The position numbers and the translations under genes were made by a program. From the NCBI RefSeq assembly GCF_006345805.1, contig NC_042998.1:53134001-53198000 (forward strand): DNA of 64,000 nucleotides, given 5' to 3'. Shown piece after piece: positions 8,436 to 52,209 of this stretch (position 1 is its first letter; each line of letters starts with the position of its first letter). Origin of the DNA: Octopus sinensis. Taxonomy: Eukaryota. The notes beneath the pieces were generated by a model. It did not search any database. It was not told the DNA's origin and worked only from the letters and a program-made list of their open reading frames with translations.

Positions 8436-10123
8436 ATGTAAGCTCATGTAAACTATTGTTATTATAATCATACATATCATCAGTGTTATCTTCCTCATAA
8501 CTCATTATTATCACAATTGAGATAGTGAGCTGGCAGAAATGTTAAAGCAGCAGAAAAAAATACTTCATACTTCTATATTCAAAGACTTCAAATTCTGAGT
8601 TCAAATCCCACCAAAGTTTACTTTGCCTTTTGTAAGGCAGTGAGCTCAAAGAATTGTTAGCAGATTGCACAAAATGCTGCTAAGCATTTTGTCCATCTGT
8701 GCATTCTGAGTTCAAATGCCCCTGAGGTTAACTTTGCCCTTCATCATTTCAAGGTTGATAGAATAAGTATGAGTCAGGTACCGGGGGAGTGAGATGTAAT
8801 TGACTAGACCCACCCCTCAAAAATTTTGCGCCTTGTGCATATAGCAGAAAAAATTATAATCAGAATTGCTTTATTACCATGGCATGACAAACAAGCATGT
8901 AGTGTCTTTCATACTAAATTGCATAACATTACAAAGAACTTTTATTCAACACTATAAATTAGGTTGATTTCATAAAGCATCAATGAAGTTCAACACTATA
9001 GAATAATTAAATCTTTAATGTTTGACATAAACCTGTAAAAATGCAACACACAGTGTGCAAATTCAATACAGCAGAGTGTGAAATTGATTTAAATTGTGTA
9101 AAATACCATTTTAAAGAGCAGATATTCAATGTTTATTGCATGTAGAATCCATGCTAACATGCATAAAGGCAACACTAAGGTGCAAAATTGCAATCTAATG
9201 TGTATACAGGTTTTTTAATGGAATAATCAATCAATATTCCTGTAGGATATTTAAAGCATAGCATATATTACTAATATGCACATATGGTGTGAGCTACAAT
9301 AGTAACACTGTACTATATATTTTTAAGTAGTTCTCATTGGTCTACATAGTATAGTGCAATTCTTTTCAAAATTAGCGATTTCAAAAAAAAAATACTGACC
9401 CATTGTAATATGTGATAGAGATTATGTGTTATGTTGATGTATATATAAAACTTCACTATATAGCTTCGGGTTGATTTTTACTCTCTCTCTCATATATATA
9501 TCATCATTATTATTTAAAGTTTATTTTCTATGCTAGCATGATTTGGACACCTTGATAGGAATCGGCAAGGCCAGGGACTGCACAAGGTTCCATAGTCTGT
9601 TTGGCTTCATTTCTATAGCCAGATGCTCTTCCTAATGCCAACCACTTTACAGAGCGTACTGGGTGCTTTTTATGTTTGACTATCACCAGTTTATCTCTCT
9701 ATCTATCTATATATTACATACATATACATACATATATACACATGTACATATATACATACATATATATACATATGTACATATATACATATATATGTACATA
9801 TATGTATACATATATATACACACATATATATATATATATATATAGAAATACAGATATATATATATGTATGTATATATAAAATTAATTAAGGGTAGAAATT
9901 GATATTTATCAATTAAGACCAGTGGTCTAGCATATTAAAAAAGAATCCGAAGATTAAAATATTTATATATACCAATTAAGGACTGAACACGAAAAGTGGA
10001 CAGTCAACATGCTAGATATAGACGTCAAATCGCCATTCACCACAAAAGATTATGTTCTCAGATCAAACTCAGCACAAAACCATAGCAATAAACAAGTGAA
10101 AAATATACGAAATAAAATAATTA

Positions 10124-10187
10124 CCCATGTACTAATTAGTTTCAGCTGTTATTTTCCGCAAGGAAAACTGCAGCCATCATCAGCATG
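10124..10187 (-). ncRNA. Type-I hammerhead ribozyme (inverted copy)
   Basis: Near-identical reverse complement of 10618-10681. Confidence 0.8.
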
Positions 10188-10617
10188 GTCCGTATATTTT
10201 TCACTTGTTTATTGCTATGGTTTTGTGCTGAGTTTGATCTGAGAACATAATCTTTTGTGGTGAATGGCGATTTGACGTCTATATCTAGCATGTTGACTGT
10301 CCACTTTTCGTGTTCAGTCCTTAATTGGTATATATAAATATTTTAATCTTCGGATTCTTTTTTAATATGCTAGACCACTGGTCTTAATTGATAAATATCA
10401 ATTTCTACCCTTAATTAATTTTATATAAATAAATATGTTCTCTAACCGATAAATTGACTGCTGCTAATTATTAGCTGCAGGCTAGTTTTCTCGGGCCTCA
10501 ACGCGCCAAAGTAAAGACATTTGAAAGATATATTCAAATGTAATAGGCTGAACTCCATGCATGCGATATTTCGGTATCGTGTTTGCATCTAGTCCAGCAA
10601 ATTACATTTATAACGGA

Positions 10618-10681
10618 CCATGCTGATGATGGCTGCAGTTTTCCTTGCGGAAAATAACAGCTGAAACTAATTAGTACATGG
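10618..10681 (+). ncRNA. Type-I hammerhead ribozyme
   Basis: ccatg-CTGATGA-t-ggctg..ttttcc ttgc ggaaaa..cagct-GAAAC-taatta-GTA-catgg. Stem I ccatg/catgg, extended stem II, palindromic stem III, GUA cleavage triplet. Confidence 0.85.
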
Positions 10682-10838
10682 GTAATTATTTTATTTCGCA
10701 TATTTTTCACTTGTTTATTGCTATGGTTTTGTGCTGAGTTTGATCTGAGAACATAATCTTTTGTGGTGAATGGCGATTTGACGTCTATATCTAGCATGTT
10801 GACTGTCCACTTTTCGTGTTCAGTCCTTAATTGGTATG

Positions 10839-10906
<68 letters not shown>

Positions 10907-10955
10907 CATATATACATACATATACATATATACATACATATATACATACATATAC

Positions 10956-11000
<45 letters not shown>

Positions 11001-11004
11001 CATT

Positions 11005-11248
11005 AGTTACATTTGACGGATATTTGTTTTCATCTTGTTTGTTGTTAACACAGCATTTCAGCTTATGTACCCTCCAGCCTTCATCAAGTATCTTGGGGAA
11101 ATTTTGAGCCCAGTTTCGAAATTTCCTCAAGACACCTGATGAAGGCTGGAATGTATATCAGCCGAAACGTTGTGTTAACAACAAACAAGATGAGAACAAA
11201 TATGCATCAAATCCAAATAATGTACAAAATTCCTCATCTCTTAAACAT
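11005..11248. mobile_element. Fold-back Penelope-type element
   Basis: Arms ~11010-11104 and ~11118-11212 are diverged inverted repeats. The right arm holds a hammerhead. Confidence 0.75.
11131..11176 (+). ncRNA. Minimal type-I hammerhead ribozyme
   Basis: gacac-CTGATGA-a-ggctg-gaatgtatat-cagcc-GAAAC-GTT-gtgtt. Stem III is only the ACGT palindrome. Confidence 0.75.
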
Positions 11249-11588
11249 CGGGGGGACCCCCTTCGGTCACGACACTGACCATGGGATTGCACCTAGAAAG
11301 TTACCCTCCTAATCGCAAGTCTGGGCAAAGTGGTTTATGGAAGGCCAGCAGTCGCCCATGCATACCGGCCTCCCCTCTCCACGCCACCAGTGTTATCCAA
11401 GGGAAAGGCAGCAGCCGATACAGCTTGGCACCAGTGAGGTCACAACTCATTTCTACAGCTGAGTGAACTGGAGCAACATGAAATAAAGTGTCTTGCTCAA
11501 GAACACAACACGCAGCCCGGTCAGGGATTCGAACTCACAACCTCACGACGTAAGCTCGACGCTCTAACCACTGAGCCACGCGCCTTCA
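11249..11588 (-). mobile_element. Full-length SINE family C with 11-bp target-site duplication
   Basis: tRNA-like head (minus) tggctcagtggttagagcg...gagttcgaatcc. TSD ctcttaaacat at 11238-11248 and 11589-11599. Confidence 0.9.
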
Positions 11589-11920: not shown

Positions 11921-12559
11921 ACAAACACATATGTGAGTATAGGTTGATGTGTAGTCATATCTGTGCAATGAATATAAGTTCCTGTACTTTATTCAGGAAA
12001 ATGAAAAATTATTTTTTATTTATTTATTATTTGGTCCATTTAAATGTCATTGGAAATAAGTGTTTTATTTGTAGGTATTTATGAAAGCAAACAACTGGAA
12101 ACAACATACGTCTAATTTGATATGTTCTTTTTAGCTCTACTCTTATGATGTCAAGGAAAAGGAAACAAGTAATGTTCAAGAATGATAGTTTGTTTAATCA
12201 ACCAACAAACTATGCTTCAACAATTTCTACAAAACAATCTAATCCAGCTCTGTATGGAATTTGGTAAAAAAAAAAAAAGATAAATAAATAAGTAAAATGG
12301 AAGTGAAATACCTAATAAAATGGTGAGGAAAAGTAACAATGTTTAACTAAGTATGTTTTATATGTGTTACACATCAAAAAATGTCATCTTTTTTTTAATG
12401 ATTTTTGTGGTGATATCATGTTCTTGTTTTAGGTGTTTTGACAGAGGTCAGTTCTGAGTAAGTAGACTTATGATCAATGGTTGTCCAGCTATAATCATGC
12501 AGTCAAGTTCGGTTGTAGGGGGGGGGGTCCACACAATATGTTTAGAACCAGATTGACAA

Positions 12560-12880
12560 ATACATCCTTTCTTTAAGATCACAGAATGTCATTTGAGAGT
12601 GATTTGGTTGCTATTTCTGACACATTCTGGAGCCTGATTATCCAATGTGCCCATTGATTAAGATGGTACAGTGTGATTTGAGGGCGATTTTGCTGCCATT
12701 TCTTTAAAATTTCTGGAGTACAATTATTCAATGTTTCCTATGATTAAAATAGTAGAGCATGATTTGAGGGAGATCTGGCTGCTATTTCTTACAAGTTTTG
12801 GAGCTCGATAATCCAATGTATCTTTTGTATAAGATACAAAGTGTGATACGAGGGACATTTTGCTGTTATTTCTTACTTGT
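12560..12880. repeat. Diverged ~88-bp tandem repeat, 4 units
   Basis: Recurrent aagat...tgtgatttgaggg.gattt.gctgctatttct. The same motif is dispersed at ~4340, 47890, 52750 and 57240. Confidence 0.65.
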
Positions 12881-13329: not shown

Positions 13330-13590
13330 GAAAATCAGTGCACTGGACTCTATTGTATTTATAGGTTGACACTAAGCCACAATAAACATAAAGCAGAATT
13401 GGCCCCAGGACATTCGGTCCCAGAGCAACTATCCATATGCTGACCCTTATAGTATTTATTCAAGGCAAGCTACAACATAAATTGATCAGAATTGGGTCCC
13501 CAGGTAACTGTCCAGTGTCCTGGCTCCTATATTATGTTGTTATTGACAGCAAACCACAGCATACAGGGATCAGAATTAGGCCCCTGCAAC
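13330..13590. repeat. Diverged ~85-93-bp tandem repeat, about 3 units
   Basis: cagaatt(g/a)g(g)cccc at ~13394, 13487 and 13571. Confidence 0.5.
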
Positions 13591-16378: not shown

Positions 16379-17091
16379 AATGTATTCACAGAGGATCATG
16401 AATTTAAATTACATTTAATTATAAATACTTTCCTTACTCTTTTCTATTTACATTCATATTAGTTTTTCCTTGAACACAGATAATAAACAAGTATGCAAAT
16501 GAAGATATTTGCATAAGCTTTAGAAGCAGATATTATGTTATTAGATGCCCTTCCTTATGTTATTACTTCTGATATCGCTAAAAATTATACAGCTATCTAT
16601 ATTCTATTTTATAGATGTTATGAGACCCTTTTATTACATTTACTGCTAATAGAATTTATATCATTATTAGCATAGCCATTCTTTAGAAGAGATGTCTAAA
16701 ATATACATTACCATCATTTCCTGATGCGTTTCTAATTATCACCATATATACACATACACACTTACATGTACATATATATGTATATTTACACATATACAAA
16801 CACATATGTATATGTCAAAATTTCATGAAGCAAACTGACAAAATTATATATATTTATATATATATACATACACACACATATATATATATATATATATCTA
16901 TATATATCTCTCTATATATATATAAGTTGAGGTTATAAGAGATAATGGTGTTGTTGAAACCCAAAGGTGTCAGGTAATGCTGAATAAGTGCTATAGACAG
17001 ACCATAGTTAAGTTCCAGATTCGGGTAATATTGCGAATAAAGGGTTCAACATTAGTTCTATGTGTATATAAGAATTTTTTTGCGTTATAAC

Positions 17092-17137
17092 ATAAAAAAC
17101 CAAGGCTGTATAGATCTATACAGCCTTGGTTTTTTAT
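17092..17137. repeat. Perfect 46-bp palindrome
   Basis: ataaaaaaccaaggctgtataga|tctatacagccttggttttttat, extending imperfectly to ~17066-17163. Confidence 0.95.
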
Positions 17138-17814
17138 CTTATTACCAAAAAATTCTTATATATATATATGTGTGCATGTGTATCTGTGCGTATATGTGTA
17201 CATGTATGTATGTATTATGTCAAAGGAACAATTATGACTGAGCTTTTATTTTTACTAAGGATTTTTCATATTTCTTTATCCAGCCTTTATGTTTGATTCA
17301 GAACATTAGTGTTCTGAAGGCCATTTGCCTACTAACATTTAAAAGCTATCTTAGCTTCATTCTCAGAATAAAACTAGTGTGGAATGGATTATTTTCATGT
17401 GTCTTGCAATAGTTTGCAAAGCATCATGGTGATTTTCCCTCTTTTTTTCTTTTAAATGCCAAACTTAAAATTTATTTAAGTCAAATCCAGTAGTTTTCAT
17501 ACTTAATTACACATACGCATGATATTCCTGTGTTTTCCATTACTAAACCTTCCATCGATACTCTTCTCATTCTTTTTGTTGTAAAATTTTGTGTAACTGA
17601 TGCTTCTTTATCAATTTTTGTTGCATGAACTACATTGTAGAGTGTTGAGATAGCTCGTTGTTCAAAATGTACAAAGGCTCAGTCAAACAATAGAGGTGTA
17701 TTGTATGCTCATTGCAGCAGTTTGATTCATGAACATTATAGCTGTCAAGTTTGCATTGAAATTTATATTCTACATTAGTTGTTAAAAGTATTTTCTAGGT
17801 TTTGTTTGTTCCTC

Positions 17815-24452: not shown

Positions 24453-24840
24453 TTTCTAAATCTCTTAGAGAGACTTAAACAGTAGCAGCATGATAAAGTG
24501 ATGGTTTGTTGCCAACTTAATGTGGCAGTCCCATGAAAGGGAAGAATGCTGCTGCTATTTAACCTCAGGAAACACTGTTTACAGTTGGCTAAGTGACACA
24601 AGCATTCTGTGTCCTTAAGTTTCCAAACAGGGGAGATAAGCACCTACACCCAGCAAAGCCAGCATCCAGAATTCATTTCGCTTGAAATTCTATAAATTTT
24701 CAATTGCAAATAAGCATTGACAGCTAGCAAGCCAAGCTACTCCAGACTGATGAAGAGCAATAACTCTGAAACTAGTCTCTGAATGCTGGCTTTGCTGGGT
24801 GGACGTGCTTATCTCCCCTGTTTGAAAATATAAGGACATA
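24453..24840. mobile_element. Fold-back Penelope-like/retrozyme element
   Basis: 24608-24670 is the inverted repeat of 24778-24840. Homologous to the 361-bp unit at 38989-40006 (tttctaaatctct, gtcctta, ggggaga). Confidence 0.75.
24743..24781 (+). ncRNA. Minimal type-I hammerhead ribozyme, canonical core
   Basis: caga-CTGATGA-agag-caataa-ctct-GAAAC-ta-GTC-tctg. Palindromic ACTAGT stem III, GUC triplet. Confidence 0.85.
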
Positions 24841-26949
24841 AAATACACCTGTTAAGGTGAATTGATATAGAGAGAGATTTAGAGTAGTGTAAAATACAAT
24901 TATAATTAAGGGTATACAGGAAACCATGCCTATGCCCTTAATTATAACAGCATTTTATACAATAATAAATCTCTATATATGTATATCTATATATTCAAAG
25001 GGCGTTTTGAGGTTCCACTCACAAGACATTGATTAACTTGGGGCTTTCATTGAAGACACTTGCCCAAGATAGCATGCAGTGGGACTGAACCCAAGACCAT
25101 ATTGTTGGGAAGCAAGCTTTTTAGCCACAAAGTCACACATGAAGAATATGCAATATTTTTGTCTGGAAATAATTTTGTAGATTCATGGTGACTGAGTAGT
25201 TATTGTTGCTGCTAAATCCCAATCTGGCACTAATCAAGCAAACATATAATCTAAAATTTTCCAGATGTGACCACCCAGTCATTTTTTTTTTGACGATATA
25301 GAATACTCTATCTAATGCACCCTTATTCAGGGTGTAATTTAAAGAAAGTTTTTGACTGCCATCTCCACTAGGGGCCAACAGACAGTAGCTCTCTTGTTGG
25401 ATTGTGATATCTGCATAGGATCAGTACATAAGTTAAGTTAAGTTAAGTTAATTTTTTGGAAGTCATATCCTATCACTGGCACAATAATGTATCTTTGGAC
25501 TAACCATTAGCTAATTTTTTGTTATTTTTTTTTTACATTTTACTGGAAATAATTAGACCATATCTAAAACAGGCCTGCTAATAAAGCTTTCACTAAATTA
25601 CTGATTGAATTAGAACACAGGTAATGAATTCTACCAAACTCAACTTAGCTTGTCCAAATTTACAAATAGTTAAGAAATGCAGAAATGTGGCAGACTGGCT
25701 GTGATTGCCATGGAAATTGCACCATTGCAGAAAAATTTGTGTCAAGAACTATATCATTACTATCGATAGAACAGACTCCAGACATTAAATCTTGACTCAT
25801 TTCTGCTTTATGACACTATTTATTTCACTATAAGTAATAGATATAGTACATATGTTGTGTGAAATCTTGTAGCAACTTATATTCAGAACAATATAGCATG
25901 CATTATATTACCTTTACTGGATACATTACCTTGGCATCTACTCATAAACAAGTCTGTACAACATAGTAATAGCTTCACTTTGAAATTGTGAACCCTATTA
26001 TATATATATATATATATATCAGCTGTGATCTCTCTGTCACCTAAACTGTTCATCAGCTTTCACTTTATATAATGTTTAAAGTTTGAAGGCTAACTCCAAT
26101 CTAGATGAGAACATATATAATACTACCTTATTGCGGTTGACAAAGTTGTTAATAATATAACAGATAAAAAGTATAAGAAAGAGTATAAGCATTTTAAGAG
26201 ATTAAAGAAAATAAATACATAAATAATCTAAATAATCAATACAATGCATCATTGGAAATATGATAAACTGGATTATAATGGATAGGATGATATTTTATAC
26301 AATAATCCTGACCTGATGAATATTTTTTTGCAATATAAGCACATTAATATATTTTGAATATAAACAGATTAATATATCTTTAGAATGATAAAGACTGAAT
26401 TTTGTCTAAAAAATTAGTAAACTCACATTAAAATGGAAATTATAATTTTTATGGTATTCTCACAAATATAATATTATACACCATGTGTATGTGTATATGT
26501 GTGTATATATGTTTGCATCTGTTCTGTTCTCTGTTGTTTTTGTCTTTCTTTTCCTTCTTCACAATGTACAGCTAATGATAGATATATACACACACATATA
26601 AACAAATATACACTTATCTTTTTTATGTACTTAAAATTATAGCTATCGAGAAATATATGATGAATATTTATTAAGAGCGATAGCAATACAACACTATGAA
26701 TGATTTCTATACAGATTTCATTTTCTTTTGTCTTCAGTTTCCCCTGCAAACTTTGTTAGGTTATGTAGAATCAGGACATTTGCATTTTGGTTCACAGACA
26801 GCTGACTTTTGTCTTCATTCATTAATGTATTCATGTACACACACAAATACACTCACACAAGCATAAATACATACACACAATTCATTTCAAAATGAACAAT
26901 TTGAGATTGAAAATGTATTTATACATACATAAATGTATGACTGTATGCA

Positions 26950-27619: not shown

Positions 27620-28715
27620 TGTTTCTTTATTAGCCACACAGGGCTGCACACAGATAGAACAAATTACAAGGTAGAGCTTTTCTTTTGAAGGTTTAAAAAA
27701 AAAGGAAGGGGGAGTTTCGATCAAAAGGGATCGTAAAAGGAGAGAAAGAGGACAAAAAGAAGGGGGGTTAAAAAAAAAAAAAAAAGGGGGAGAGGAAAAA
27801 AAAATTGATCAATAGGGATCGTTATCACAGAAATGTCAATATGAAGTGTAAAGGGGAGGACAGGTGAGGTTTACCCGTGGAAAGAAAAGCCTACGGAAAA
27901 GACCACGGTAACCTCGGTCAATGAAGTCACATTTTATATGTCTTTTTTTTTTTTTTTTTTTTTTTTTGCAAATAAGCAACTCTCTGTTTTCGATTTCTGG
28001 GTTCATAGGACTATGCTCAAGGTGGCTTCGTCATTCATATGTGCCATTCTTGCTACATTCACCCATCTTTTTTTAAAACATTCGCTAGACAAAACTTGCC
28101 TCTCTACTCTCACTTTCCTTTTCAAGTGGTACTTGAAGAAGTTGATGAGAGATTGACCAGAGAGGAAAGTGTTTGTCTCCAATCCTTTCAGACGCGTCCA
28201 CCAGATACATTCTTTCGCCATAGCCACAAGGATGATGAAAATAGCTCTTCCTTCCCGTTTGAAGGAAGGAGGCGTGACAATATTGACGATAGACTCAGCT
28301 GATAAACCGACTCGTCCCACATGTGACAGCAGTTGTTTGACATAAGCCCACAGGTCGGAAATTGTTGGACACTGAACGAGTGCATGCAGAACGGTTTCGT
28401 CGCTCTGACCGCATCTCGGGCAGGTCGGCCCCGTGTTTCTCGAGCCGTGTCTGTAGAGCTTATCCCGAACGGGTAGCGCTTCTCGGTAGCACTGCCAGGC
28501 CAGGGATCTCTGGAAGTTGTCCATGGGCCCTGGCCCGAAAGTCGTCCCGAACAGGCGGGTCAGGTACTCCTCGTCGACGTCCAGGTTCGCCCCGAGCTCG
28601 TCGTCGTACCTCCCCTCCACTAAACCCCTATAGAATGCTTTGGTTGTGTTGAAGTCACTTAAGGTCGACCCAGGACGGCAGAGTTGCTTGAGAGCAACGC
28701 GACACTCGCGGTGCC
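27619..28715 (-). mobile_element. 5'-truncated Tx1/L1-clade LINE inserted in (GATA)n
   Basis: ORF2 C-terminus plus 3'UTR ending aataaagaaac. Long (GATA)n arrays on both sides. Confidence 0.85.

Positions 28716-28716
<1 letters not shown>
28003..28716 (-). pseudogene. LINE ORF2 C-terminal fragment with zf-RVT-like zinc knuckle
   Basis: Open frame WHRECRVALKQL...AWQCYREALPVRDKL...CPRCGQSDETVLHALVQCP...W. CCHC motif typical of L1/Tx1 ORF2; no start because of 5' truncation. Confidence 0.85.
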
Positions 28717-28811
<95 letters not shown>

Positions 28812-29409
28812 GGATGGACAGACAGAGACAGACAGACAGAAAGATTGATAAATCTTATACATATACACACATATATAAACACACATTATATATACATACA
28901 TATATACACACACATATATCATCCTCACCATCGCCATGATGATTGTTTTATTGTCTACTTTCCTATGCTTGCTTAGCTCAGATGAATTTCACTGAGGTTA
29001 ACTTTCAATGACCAGATGGCCTTCTTGTTGTTAACTTTCACTTGTTTCCAAGCAAGACATATTCCCATTGAAGATTGGAAACAAAAGAAACAGCTTGTAT
29101 GACAGGGAAGCTCATTTACAACACTTGCGAGATGTCAACATGAGGAGACACAAACATACACGCATACACATCCATAGACAGATATATATACACACATGGT
29201 TGACTTCTTGCAGTTTCTGCTAACAAAATCCACTCACAGAAATTTTAGTTAGTCCAGGGATAGAGTAGACATTACTGACACTTGCCTAAGGTGCCCTATA
29301 CTAGAACTGAACCAAAAACTATCTAGTTGGAAAATGAAATTCTTAGCTACACTGCCATACCTGCACCTGACACACATTCACACACACACATATGTATATA
29401 TATATATAG

Positions 29410-48489: not shown

Positions 48490-48930
48490 TATATTTTAAT
48501 TGTTTAAGTTATTAGACTGTGGTCATGCTGGGACACTACCTTGAAGAATTTTTAATCAAATGAATCAACCCCAGTACTTATTTTTTGAAAGCCCAATACT
48601 AATTCAATCAGTCTTTTTTGCCAAAACACTAAGTTACAGGGACATAAGCACAACAGCACCAGTTGTCAAGCAGTGGTGGGACACACACACACACACACAC
48701 ACACACATTCTACTTTCTTGTGTTCTTTTCTTTGTTTCAGTCTCTTAATTGTGGCCATGCTGGAGCACTGCTTTTAGCCAAAGAAACCGATCCCAGAACT
48801 TATTCTTTGCAAGCCTAGAACTTATTCTATCAGTTATTTTTGTCGAACTGCTAAGTTATGGGGACATAAACACACCAACATTGGTTATCAATCAATGGTG
48901 GGGGGAAAACTCAGATAGAGACACACACAC
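48490..48930 (-). mobile_element. SINE family A 3' halves (two)
   Basis: tgtggccatgctggagcact...gaactgctaagttatggggacataaacacacca. Confidence 0.75.
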
Positions 48931-48953
48931 ACGTGTGTATATATATATATATA

Positions 48954-49898
48954 CTATCAGAACTGGAGAAGTTTCAACTATCAGAACTGGAGGAGAAGTT
49001 TCAGGTGTGGAAACAAGGATTAGAATCGAAGGGCCTTAGAGTCAACCTAGCCAAAACCAAAGTCCTAATAAGTAGGAAGGTGGACCAACCACAAACGACT
49101 TCAGGTAGATGGCCCTGCTCGATCTGTAAAAAAGGTGTAGGTAGAAACTCTATAAGGTGCACCAAGTGTAAGCTATGGACACATAAGAGGTGCAGCAATG
49201 TCAAAGGTAGGCTAACTGGGAAGATAGTTTTCGTATGTGGCAGATGCTCAGGAACAATAAACACTGGAAATGTGCAGAGACCAACTTCTACCACGTTCCA
49301 GGGAGACAAACTAGAAGTAGTTGATAGCTTCTACTACCTAGGAGACCAAGTTAGTAGCGGGGGTGGGTGTGCTGAAAGTGTAACTGCTAGAGTAAGAATA
49401 GCCTGGGCAAAGTTTAGAGAGCTCTTACCCCTGCTGGTGACAAAAGGCCTCTCGCTCAGAGTAAAAGGCAGACTTTATGATGCATGTGTACGTACAGCCA
49501 TGCTACATGGTAGTGAAACATGGGCCGTGACTGCTGAGGATATGCGTAAGCTCGCAAGAAATGAAGCCAGTATGCTCCGATGGATGTGTAATGTCAGTGT
49601 TCATAATCGTCAGAGTGTAAGTACCTTGAGAGAAAAGTTGAACCTAAGAAGCGTCAATTGTGGTGTGCAAGAGAGACGGCTGCGCTGGTATGGTCATATG
49701 ACGAGAATGGCTGAAGATAGTTGTGTGCAAAAGTGCTACATCCTAGCAGTTGAGGGAACCTGTGGAAGAGGTAGACCCAGGAAAACCTGGGACGAAGTGG
49801 TGAAGCACGACCTACAAAGTTTAGGTCTCACCAAGGAAATGACTAGAGACCGAGACCTATGGAAGTATGCTGTGCGTGAGAAGACCTGGCAAGACTAG
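48954..49898 (+). pseudogene. RTE ORF C-terminal third (end of RT, PHD finger, thumb/C-terminal region)
   Basis: GLRVNLAKTKVL, LEVVDSFYYLG, AMLHGSETW, RRLRWYGHM, GRGRPRKTW, DRDLWK. No YADD motif or endonuclease (truncated). Confidence 0.9.
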
Positions 49899-50179
49899 TC
49901 AGGCCATAACCCGTGGCCCCTACCTGGGACGTAGTCAGTCCACCTGTGCATACCTTCCTTCTTGTGATACTTGTGAAGACCTGTTGAGGCAAGTGAAAAT
50001 CAAACAAAATCAAAATAGATGAACATCAATGGAATTTGTATCCTTGTGGTATCAGTGCCGGTGGCACACAAGAAAACCATCCGAACGTGGCCGTAGCCAG
50101 TACCGCACCGACTGGCCTCCATGCTGTGGGCACGTTACAATCACCATCCAATCGTGGCCGATCGCCAGCCTAATCTGGC

Positions 50180-50836
50180 TCCTGTGTCGGTGGCACATAA
50201 AAAACACCATCTGAGCGTGGTCGTCTGCCAGCCTTGTCTGGCACCTGTGTCGGTGGCACATAAAAACACCATCCGAACGTGGCCGTTCGCCAGCCTCGTC
50301 TAGCACCTGTGTCGGTGGCACATAAAAATAAAAAACACCATCCGAGCGTGGTCGTCTGCTAGCCTTGTCTGGCACCTGTGTCGGTGGCACATAAAAACAC
50401 CATCCGAGCGTGGCCGTTCGCCAGCCTCGTCTGGCACCTGTGTCGGTGGCACATAAAAACACCATCCGAGCGTGGTCATCTGCCAGCCTTGTCTGGCACC
50501 TGTGTCGGTGGCACATAAAAAAAAAAACACCATCCGAGCGTGGTCGTCTGCTAGCCTTGTCTGGCACCTGTGTCGGTGGCACATAAAAACACCATCCGAG
50601 CGTGGCCGTTCGCCAGCCTCGTCTGGCACCTGTGTCGGTGGCACATAAAAACACCATCTGAGCGTGGTCGTCTGCCAGCCTTGTCTGGCACCTGTGTCGG
50701 TGGCACATAAAAACACCATCCGAGCGTGGCCGTTCGCCAGCTTCGTCTGGCACCTGTGTCGGTGGCACATAAAAACACCATCCGAGCGTGGTCGTTCGCC
50801 AGCCTCGTCTGGCACCTGTGTCGGTGGCACATAAAA
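50180..50836 (+). repeat. 62-bp minisatellite, about 10.5 units, in the RTE 3'UTR
   Basis: cacctgtgtcggtggcacataaaaacaccatccgagcgtgg[ccgttc/tcgtct]gccagcct[c/t]gtctgg. Confidence 0.95.
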
Positions 50837-51004
50837 TCACCCACTACACTCTCGGAGTGGTTGGCGTTAGGAAGGGCATCCAGCTGTAGAAACACTGCCA
50901 GATCTGACTGGCCTGGTACAGCCTTCGGGCTCCCCAGACCCCAGTTGAACCGTCCAACCCATGCTAGCATGGAAAGCGGACGTTAAATGATGATGATGAT
51001 GATA

Positions 51005-52209
51005 CAAGGTGTGTAAGGTATTTGAGAATTACCTTTTTGGGGACATTGCTGCATGTTTTACTAACTCTGTATAATCTTTGCTTCAGAAATTAATAACGGC
51101 AAACCCTCAGCTTACTCAAGAAATGAAGAGACATGCTATTATTGTGATTATAAAGGCTGAGCATAGCTGTTTAGAAATACCTTGATTTTTAAAATTTGCC
51201 AGACCTTTCATCTACAGAGTTTGTAAGGAGCTGGAGACTGAAGATGGAAACATATCACCAATATCAAAGTATAAAAGCATTCTAAATGCTCTGAAATCAT
51301 CAGAACACCTGAATTTATCCAACAAGTTCAACAAACCATTGATTACAATCCCAGAAAGTCCATGAAGTCAATTGCTGAAGATATCCATGTATCAGAAGGA
51401 ACAGTCAGAAATGTTGTCCACGAAGACATCAGATATAAGTCTTATATGATGAGGAAAGGTCAATTTGTTAGAAAAAGTAAAAGAAAATCACTACATCAGA
51501 TCTAAAAGGCTCTTAAACAAACTGAAAAGTCAGAAGATTTGATTTAGTTTTTCTCAAATAAGAAAAACTTCGACCATGATCAGAAAGTTAACAGAAGAAA
51601 TGACATGTAGTTATGTGCAAACCCTTCTGAAATTCCAAGTGTTATGCATACAAAATTTCCAGCTACTATCATAGTTTCAGCAATGAAGGACATGTGATAC
51701 TTCCTTACTTCTTTCCACAAGGCCTTAGAGTTAACTCTGTCACCTGCATTGAGGCCTTGGAAATAATTGTTAAGCCCTGAACAGACAGTGTATGCAATGG
51801 AAGGTCATATGTGTTTCAGTAAGACTCTGCACTATCACACATGGAATGGATGGCTGAAAATTTTCATGATCATCTAGCCCCTAACATTTGGTCTCTTAAT
51901 TCCCCAGATCTCAATCCATTAGACTATTACATGTAGAGTGCTGTTGAGAGAGATGTCAATGGCTATGCCCATAACACCAAAGATTCTTTGAAACCTGCCA
52001 TAGACAGTGTAATGTTCAAAATGAACCAGGACCACTTGATTTGAGCGTGTAGATGATTTAGATCTCATATGAAAGCAGTTGTTGAAGCTGCTTCATTAAA
52101 GAAAAGAAGGTTTATTTTTATCCTCATAGCATTTTTTGATAAATAAAGTTATTATTTGTTATCTGGTGTTTTATGAACATAAATCTGTCCTCAAATATCT
52201 AATACACCT

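Follow-up and report, generated by a model that had tools for sequence, protein, structure and literature searches.

A non-coding hammerhead unit with a Penelope-type insertion footprint at a TA microsatellite of Octopus sinensis

An insert at positions 9873-10837 of the 64-kb window (the whole stretch of Octopus sinensis DNA that was analysed) is best explained as a non-autonomous element of the retrozyme type, mobilised by a Penelope-like reverse transcriptase (RT)/GIY-YIG enzyme that would have primed both nicked target strands on a tandem or circular RNA; we put the probability of this reading, which is a model built on the sequence, at roughly 0.7. Animal retrozymes, their link to Penelope and inverted Penelope insertions are already published, and the insert is notable for its unusually complete insertion footprint. 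In the sections of the literature cited here, the link between retrozymes and Penelope is drawn from shared hammerheads, co-occurrence and sequence trees, and the locus adds the Penelope integration footprint itself.

The insert is made of two pieces of one 506-nt unit, an inverted piece of 321 nt and a direct piece of 647 nt (10191-10837), which overlap by 3 nt:

9873-10193, minus strand: inverted 321-nt piece, an exact reverse complement save for one mismatch (10107/10699)
9873, minus strand: outer end of the inverted piece, which is the second preferred 3' end of the unit's family
10191-10193, no strand: overlap CGT (3 nt) that joins the inverted and direct pieces
10191-10696, plus strand: full 506-nt non-coding unit, GC 33.6%, strongly folded
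10697-10837, plus strand: partial second unit of 141 nt, which stops at preferred site 1 and whose final 3 nt (TAT) also match the target

The direct piece amounts to one full unit plus 141 nt, or 1.28 (~1.3) units, in that 10191-10331 recurs 506 nt later as 10697-10837 with a single mismatch (T at 10193, C at 10699). The preliminary description had reported this 506-nt repeat, which holds with that one difference and extends 2 nt beyond the 10835 given there. It had also reported a perfect 237-bp fold-back, and the complementary arms 9873-10109 and 10191-10427 indeed show 0 mismatches over 237 nt, with mismatch beginning immediately outside both. Its view of the loop between the arms can be kept in part: a minus-strand hammerhead does lie there, but the 81-nt loop is no separate feature, since it belongs to the 321-nt inverted piece, which is the reverse complement of 10613-10696 and then of 10191-10427. 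There is no further copy of the 506-nt unit anywhere in the 64-kb window. With a partial tandem, an adjacent inverted 5' copy and an AT-rich target, the insert has the architecture of a Penelope-type insertion, and the inverted piece and partial tandem uphold the earlier proposal to that effect.

These pieces also carry information about the template. Unit-to-unit continuity at 10331/10332 is found in the inverted and the direct piece alike, and so the junction was in the template; because the predicted hammerhead cut site is likewise read through in both, the template would have been tandem or circular, and either uncut or re-joined. The outer 96 nt of the left arm are 100% identical to the unit and 36% identical to the right flank. 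A plain fold-back of the right-hand cDNA is therefore excluded as their source, which argues against simple self-priming and against a read chimera. Read in the sense of the ribozyme, each outer end of the insert is a 3' end. It coincides in both cases with a CTTAATT motif and an adjoining TA tract, and the distances downstream of the predicted cut are 161 and 257 nt, which puts the two ends 96 nt apart. At the inner junction, the overlap bases 10191-10193 supply the two complementary strands of what may be a distal stem I helix.

A (TA/TACA)n microsatellite lies on both flanks of the insert, and within it are two copies of a 16-mer, absent from the preliminary description:

9863-9878, plus strand: left copy of the candidate 16-bp target-site duplication, of which the final 6 nt (TATATA) match the element end as well
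10835-10850, plus strand: right copy of the candidate 16-bp target-site duplication, beyond which (TA/TACA)n microsatellite continues

The two copies adjoin both insert ends as direct repeats, overlapping the element by 6 and 3 nt, and their core GTATGTAT is confined to the two junctions within 9690-11010. As background to this candidate, the two microsatellite flanks share 45 exact matches of at least 14 nt, and we regard the pair as a plausible target duplication that remains a candidate within a microsatellite. At TA tracts, chance alone would be expected to give a 3-6 nt overlap with a (TA)n target.

Whether the unit exists apart from this locus can be judged from public sequencing contigs. 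The unit is present, whole or in part, in 20 of the 24 listed runs (11 studies, 5 organisms), and so represents a multi-copy family; 16 of the listed runs contain at least half of the unit's words, and the maximum share in any run is 0.79. None of the 24 runs is on record as RNA; X7 and X17 are presumed to be RNA, from which expression cannot be inferred. Four runs (X1, X2, X7 and X17) were aligned to the unit in the rotation 10251-10756, as contigs only, which give no information on ends, strand or copy number; their summed depth is uneven along the unit and is no measure of copies either. Repeats yield short contigs in Logan, and the X1 and X2 pieces among those listed measure at most 155 nt. 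Two preferred end sites emerge from these alignments:

10320-10341, plus strand: preferred 3' end site 1, CTTAATT and then a TA tract, where copies run into (TA)n (15 contigs each in X1 and X2)
10410-10436, plus strand: preferred 3' end site 2, CTTAATT and then a TA tract, 96 nt past site 1 (a one-sided 'tail'; X2, X7 and X17)

Nineteen of 214 loose-end rows, with at most 30 letters each, bear on these sites. Seven of the 19 (46 contigs, from all 4 runs) pass from the unit into TA-rich letters at 10341 or 10424-10436, and these are the same two ends as those of the insert; the others include one exit at 10413, one (TA)n end before 10712 and 10 that by eye resemble diverged unit. The unit has 3 TA tracts of at least 6 nt, and the two end sites account for 2 of them. 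A third CTTAATT motif, within 10383-10400 and so between the end sites, has no TA tract, and no loose end falls there among the 19 of 214 rows.

All 30 bins of the unit are covered in each of the four aligned runs. The joint that returns after 506 nt is present in all four as well, which alone shows only continuity at that point. In X7, the hammerhead, the 506 joint and both end sites are all contained in a single 480-nt contig of depth 108.1, which shows 5 differences relative to the window, and the five short contigs around its only gap have a total depth of 107.3. The unit in this run closes into a 506-nt loop without outflow in the assembly graph, a graph that a tandem DNA array and a circle give equally. 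The proposal of a tandem or circular template is strengthened by this closed loop and by the unit junction seen in both pieces of the insert. Circular permutation, which had also been proposed, fits in that the unit closes on itself; the ends are not random, since copies stop at the two preferred sites. The main form in X7 agrees with the window at 10383 and 10393, where X1 and X2 carry those letters only as a minority (20-27% at 10383), and the window copy thus belongs to the subfamily that dominates X7. An opposite-strand joint at another place, 10264/10336, occurs in one X17 contig; the insert's own fold-back junction is found in none of the 4 aligned runs.

The unit is non-coding, as had been claimed. 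The longest plus-strand open frame in 10191-10835 has 36 codons, there is no ORF remnant on the sense strand of the unit, and a Pfam search of 137 window frames, a set that excluded low-complexity frames and those under 60 aa, gave no match to RT (Penelope RT included) or GIY-YIG. The sole RT-associated Pfam match in the window is a zf-RVT at 28 kb. Having no RT and GIY-YIG ORF, the insert is not an autonomous EN+ Penelope-like element (PLE). The unit folds strongly (z -7.3 as a linear and -6.2 as a circular molecule, the latter equalled by 0 of 40 shuffles; -5.5 for the minus strand), but 2 of 10 control windows fold at z <= -5.3. The control stretches 17000-17505 and 55000-55505 fold very strongly, with z -9.5 and -5.3 (12 shuffles each). 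Among 27 variant positions outside the hammerhead, 16 are unpaired, 9 keep their pair as a wobble and 2 break one, and none forms part of a two-sided compensatory change. A long hairpin is predicted at 10536-10609, just upstream of the hammerhead, and its five paired variant positions are all wobble-kept.

The hammerhead occurs twice:

10125-10188, minus strand: type I hammerhead copy 1, the same sequence as copy 2, with the cut predicted between 10130 and 10129 (consensus)
10618-10681, plus strand: type I hammerhead copy 2, with the cut predicted after A10676

The core of copy 2 comprises CUGAUGA at 10623, an extra U at 10630, GAAA at 10663 and GUA at 10674-10676. Stem I has 5 bp (10618-10622/10677-10681), stem II has 5 bp, an internal loop, 7 bp and a 4-nt loop, and stem III is palindromic (10667-10674). 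This is the type I arrangement, with CUGANGA, GAAA, NUH, three stems and stem I open, and it includes all the features that had been read from the plus strand (extended stem II, extra U after CUGAUGA, GUA). A strict hammerhead descriptor matches three places in the window (10623 plus, 10183 minus and 11136 plus), compared with 2 matches in 200 dinucleotide shuffles of 64 kb. The earlier phrase 'two intact hammerheads' needs qualification: both are there, but since the inverted piece is the reverse complement of parts of the unit, they are the same ribozyme sequence twice, they go undetected by Rfam 15, and the basal pair of stem II (10631/10662) is G-U and not the usual G10.1-C11.1. A C at this pair accounts for 10-14% of summed depth in X1 and X2.

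Rfam 15 gave 0 matches at the gathering score over the full 64 kb; at E up to 10 over 9850-11300 there were 27 matches with no hammerhead among them, mostly microsatellite-driven microRNA models. The neighbouring hammerhead motif at 11136 was likewise missed. With Rfam blind to both copies, the hammerhead call rests on core consensus, stems and covariation. The covariation comes from a single diverged X17 contig, with 22 differences over 197 nt, in which three double changes occur. Two are in stem II, where G-C becomes A-U at 10635/10658 and U-A becomes A-U at 10641/10652 with pairing kept; the third, at 10669/10672, preserves the stem III palindrome and is also seen in 4 contigs of X2. A 2-nt insertion at 10670 keeps the palindrome, and 1-nt insertions there break it. 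The diverged contig loses the basal pair 10631/10662, and a G>C change at 10638 (10-20% of depth) breaks one stem II pair. The minimum free energy fold of the hammerhead favours an alternative pairing (-21.4 kcal/mol, against -18.3 for the active monomer fold), which is uninformative if the ribozyme acts as a dimer. Self-cleavage of the predicted ribozyme cannot be assumed, because only 1 of 9 retrozyme dimers cleaved in vitro, according to the portion of a preprint cited here (bioRxiv 10.64898/2026.07.22.740005).

The insertion is likely to be young, as had been suggested. The arms are identical, the C at 10699 is found in none of the 4 aligned runs, and the observed/expected ratio of CpG is ~1.0 in the insert and 0.32 in the window; conversion between the arms could also have made them equal.

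Under the preferred reading, tandem copies would be transcribed, and the hammerheads, probably acting as dimers through the palindromic stem III, would excise 506-nt monomers, whose ligation into circles is possible. The borrowed enzyme of an autonomous PLE would nick both (TA)n strands ~16 nt apart. Each nicked 3' end would then anneal to a TA tract on its RNA template, an uncut tandem or a circle, and be extended, site 1 priming the bottom strand and site 2 the top strand, and the two cDNAs, of 647 and 321 nt, would meet head to head and be joined via 3 shared bases. An analogous process to such two-ended priming is the 'twin priming' of L1. Judged by title and abstract, neither of the 2 papers found on twin priming together with Penelope deals with the question. 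As far as the cited sections of the anole study go (PMC11167929), the two target strands are both cut and extended by the purified Penelope-like protein of an anole, which uses unprocessed RNA as template and starts at two internal RNA sites downstream of the hammerhead, which define a 'tail' and are without homology to the cut DNA. Pairing of TA tracts between target and RNA is our own, unproven extension beyond these data. A bolder version, in which a cephalopod retrozyme circle would aim at (TA)n by means of two RNA-encoded TA primer-binding tracts, with both nicked strands primed on the circle, is possible but seems to us rather doubtful. If it were true, two-ended priming would explain the head-to-head inversions of Penelope, and the locus would be anatomical evidence that Penelope enzymes integrate retrozyme circles. 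As for a partner, Octopus vulgaris has 30 recently active Penelope families, described in a main text that, in the sections cited, is without ribozymes (PMC13282606). The Naiad elements of octopus were considered and set aside: they prefer (TA)n, but are listed as having no canonical hammerhead and described as remnants in the relevant part of PMC8557442.

The same element could have acquired its inverted arm differently, by hairpin self-priming and a template jump, as modelled by Arkhipova et al. (2013), with end sites that reflect RNA structure or protein binding and not pairing with the target. This would change the mechanism and leave the identity as in the preferred reading. Self-priming has been proposed for head-to-head PLE repeats (PMC3846280, in the passages cited), the starts of the anole enzyme at non-homologous RNA sites would suit it (PMC11167929, likewise in part), and the junction bases 10191-10193 are able to pair within stem I. 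We nevertheless think it unlikely: the junction has no palindrome, with 81 nt between the arms, the left arm has 96 nt beyond the right-hand cDNA end, for which a further jump would be needed, and the left end is the family's second preferred end site. Another reading would make the insert the truncated end of an ordinary coding PLE, with the 506 nt composed of pseudo-LTR plus UTR and the tandem present only in the insert or its source. The usual pattern of PLE insertions, according to the cited parts of PMC3846280 and PMC8557442, combines an inverted 5' piece with a partial tandem, a tail and a target duplication, and PMC4209133, again in part, both describes hammerheads of the PLE type, to which ours belongs in preference to the canonical retrozyme type, and ascribes dual opposite-strand hammerheads 100-700 bp apart to truncated PLEs. 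Two older hammerhead fold-back stubs of that kind lie within the window. What makes truncation a distinctly improbable origin is the lack of any sense ORF remnant longer than 36 codons or of an RT or GIY-YIG match among the 137 frames, together with the closure of the unit without outflow in X7 and the share of aligned contigs continuing into unlike sequence, which is 0 in X1 and 0 in X2. The preliminary description had set its own reading against copies all attached to a coding PLE; no ORF-like exit, and nothing resembling coding sequence, appears in the 19 of 214 loose-end rows, although with short contigs and that number of rows a rarer coding parent could escape.

Amplification at the DNA level, as a satellite or a fold-back (MITE-like) element with no RNA step and the hammerhead as a passenger, seems very improbable. 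Part of bioRxiv 10.64898/2026.07.22.740005 discusses how PLE ends can be amplified locally in tandem to form minisatellites, and no RNA of the family is on record among the listed runs; against this, no fixed terminal inverted repeats are evident, copies end at two internal sites into (TA)n, the opposite-strand joint of one X17 contig (10264/10336) is a different one, and the hammerhead stems covary. We give least credence to an assembly or long-read fold-back chimera. Arms that are 100% identical, a microsatellite on both flanks and a junction unseen in the 4 aligned runs would all be consistent with such an artefact, but no mirror symmetry extends into the flanks, 84 nt of the arm derive from a segment 420 nt further downstream, both ends coincide with natural end sites of the family, the third copy has a different letter at 10699, and the runs probably come from other individuals (<=0.79 of words each).

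Comparison with known systems places the unit likely among the animal non-LTR retrozymes, at a locus without two consecutive complete hammerheads. In the cited parts of PMC7229834 (Cervera and de la Pena 2020) and bioRxiv 10.64898/2026.07.22.740005 (Li, Clavereau and Pollet 2026), these are non-coding, low-GC, self-paired and tandem, with one type I hammerhead per unit, and our unit has the same properties. Expression as unit-length linear and circular RNA is a further defining feature of retrozymes. Our unit differs from the 'active' copies, defined in the preprint by two consecutive complete hammerheads, in having 1.28 units and one sense hammerhead. Its 506 nt exceed the 150-450 bp of PMC7229834 and fall within the 51-972 bp of the preprint; the target duplication is >4 bp there and a 16-bp candidate in a microsatellite here, and the insert adds hammerhead traits of the PLE type, an inverted 5' piece and a tail. 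The preprint, as far as it is cited here, proposes animal retrozymes as non-autonomous Penelope derivatives. The term 'inverted' is absent from the main text of PMC7229834 and occurs in the preprint only in a reference title, and 'octopus' is absent from both main texts.

With the EN+ PLE insertions described in the relevant parts of PMC3846280, PMC8557442 and PMC11167929, the insert shares a partial tandem, an adjacent inverted 5' copy, a putative one-sided tail, a candidate target duplication, an AT-rich or (TA)n target and a hammerhead upstream of two internal 3' end sites. In contrast to them, it has no RT or GIY-YIG ORF, its tail is 96 nt compared with a published 30-40 bp, and both of its end sites carry a repeated CTTAATT and a TA tract that matches the target. 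Hammerheads of PLEs, according to the cited sections of PMC4209133 (Cervera and de la Pena 2014), have an extra nucleotide, a long helix II, a helix I of 4-5 bp and a palindromic helix III, and cleave weakly and as dimers. The ribozyme described here has the extra nucleotide, the long helix II, the short helix I and the palindromic helix III, along with a longer helix II (12 bp with an internal loop), G-U in place of G10.1-C11.1, a helix III that fits 3 bp and an A at the cut site. Non-autonomous Chlamys elements such as MRC1 (PMC8557442, in part) are also non-coding, with pseudo-LTRs, head-to-tail insertions and microsatellite targets, and are PLE dependants. They come, however, from green algae, are mostly without a canonical hammerhead, and have an established similarity to an autonomous family. 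The same paper, in the parts cited, already describes partial tandems, inverted copies, tails, (TA)n bias and non-autonomous head-to-tail derivatives.

No description of an octopus or cephalopod hammerhead or retrozyme family was found in the literature covered, which mostly leaves subscription papers outside and does not extend to Repbase and Dfam, where it may be listed as a Penelope fragment; nor was one found there of a family of non-autonomous inverted PLEs with hammerheads. The element would extend retrozymes to cephalopods. The locus offers a template that is small, young and non-coding and has two defined end sites, suited to work on the origin of head-to-head inversions and on (TA)n targeting. 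Metagenome matches to a 20-nt hammerhead pattern, at 6 loci with GC 56-62% and a match to the unit of at most 20-23 nt, were dismissed as chance, and the same pattern gave 0 matches in viral contigs.

Compared with the two other hammerhead stubs in the window, the unit shows no significant similarity (best E 0.11), in agreement with the earlier statement that it is sequence-unrelated. One of these, a fold-back at 11007-11223 right after the same microsatellite, has arms ~82% alike, an intact-looking core at 11136 and a decayed core in the left arm, and looks like an older Penelope end. The other, at 24604-24844 (core 24747, GUC ending 24777), has an inverted arm that starts ~2 bases from the predicted cut site; as a single case, it could mean that cleaved RNA was copied. 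Elsewhere in the window, a LINE-type ORF is represented by its 3' part, which includes a PHD-like finger, at 48870-49898; its highest-identity named relatives are in Octopus vulgaris (88% identity, 49% of the query covered) and O. bimaculoides (78% identity, 42% covered). The zf-RVT domain belongs to a 283-codon minus-strand frame at 28003-28854, probably the end of another LINE, and a weak match to a Tc3-type transposase helix-turn-helix, below the Pfam cut-off, lies at 51275-51502. Diverged tandem repeats of ~85 nt are found at 12540-12874 and 13363-13584, and a GC-richer tandem repeat at 50050-50980 gives rise to long repetitive open frames on the minus strand.
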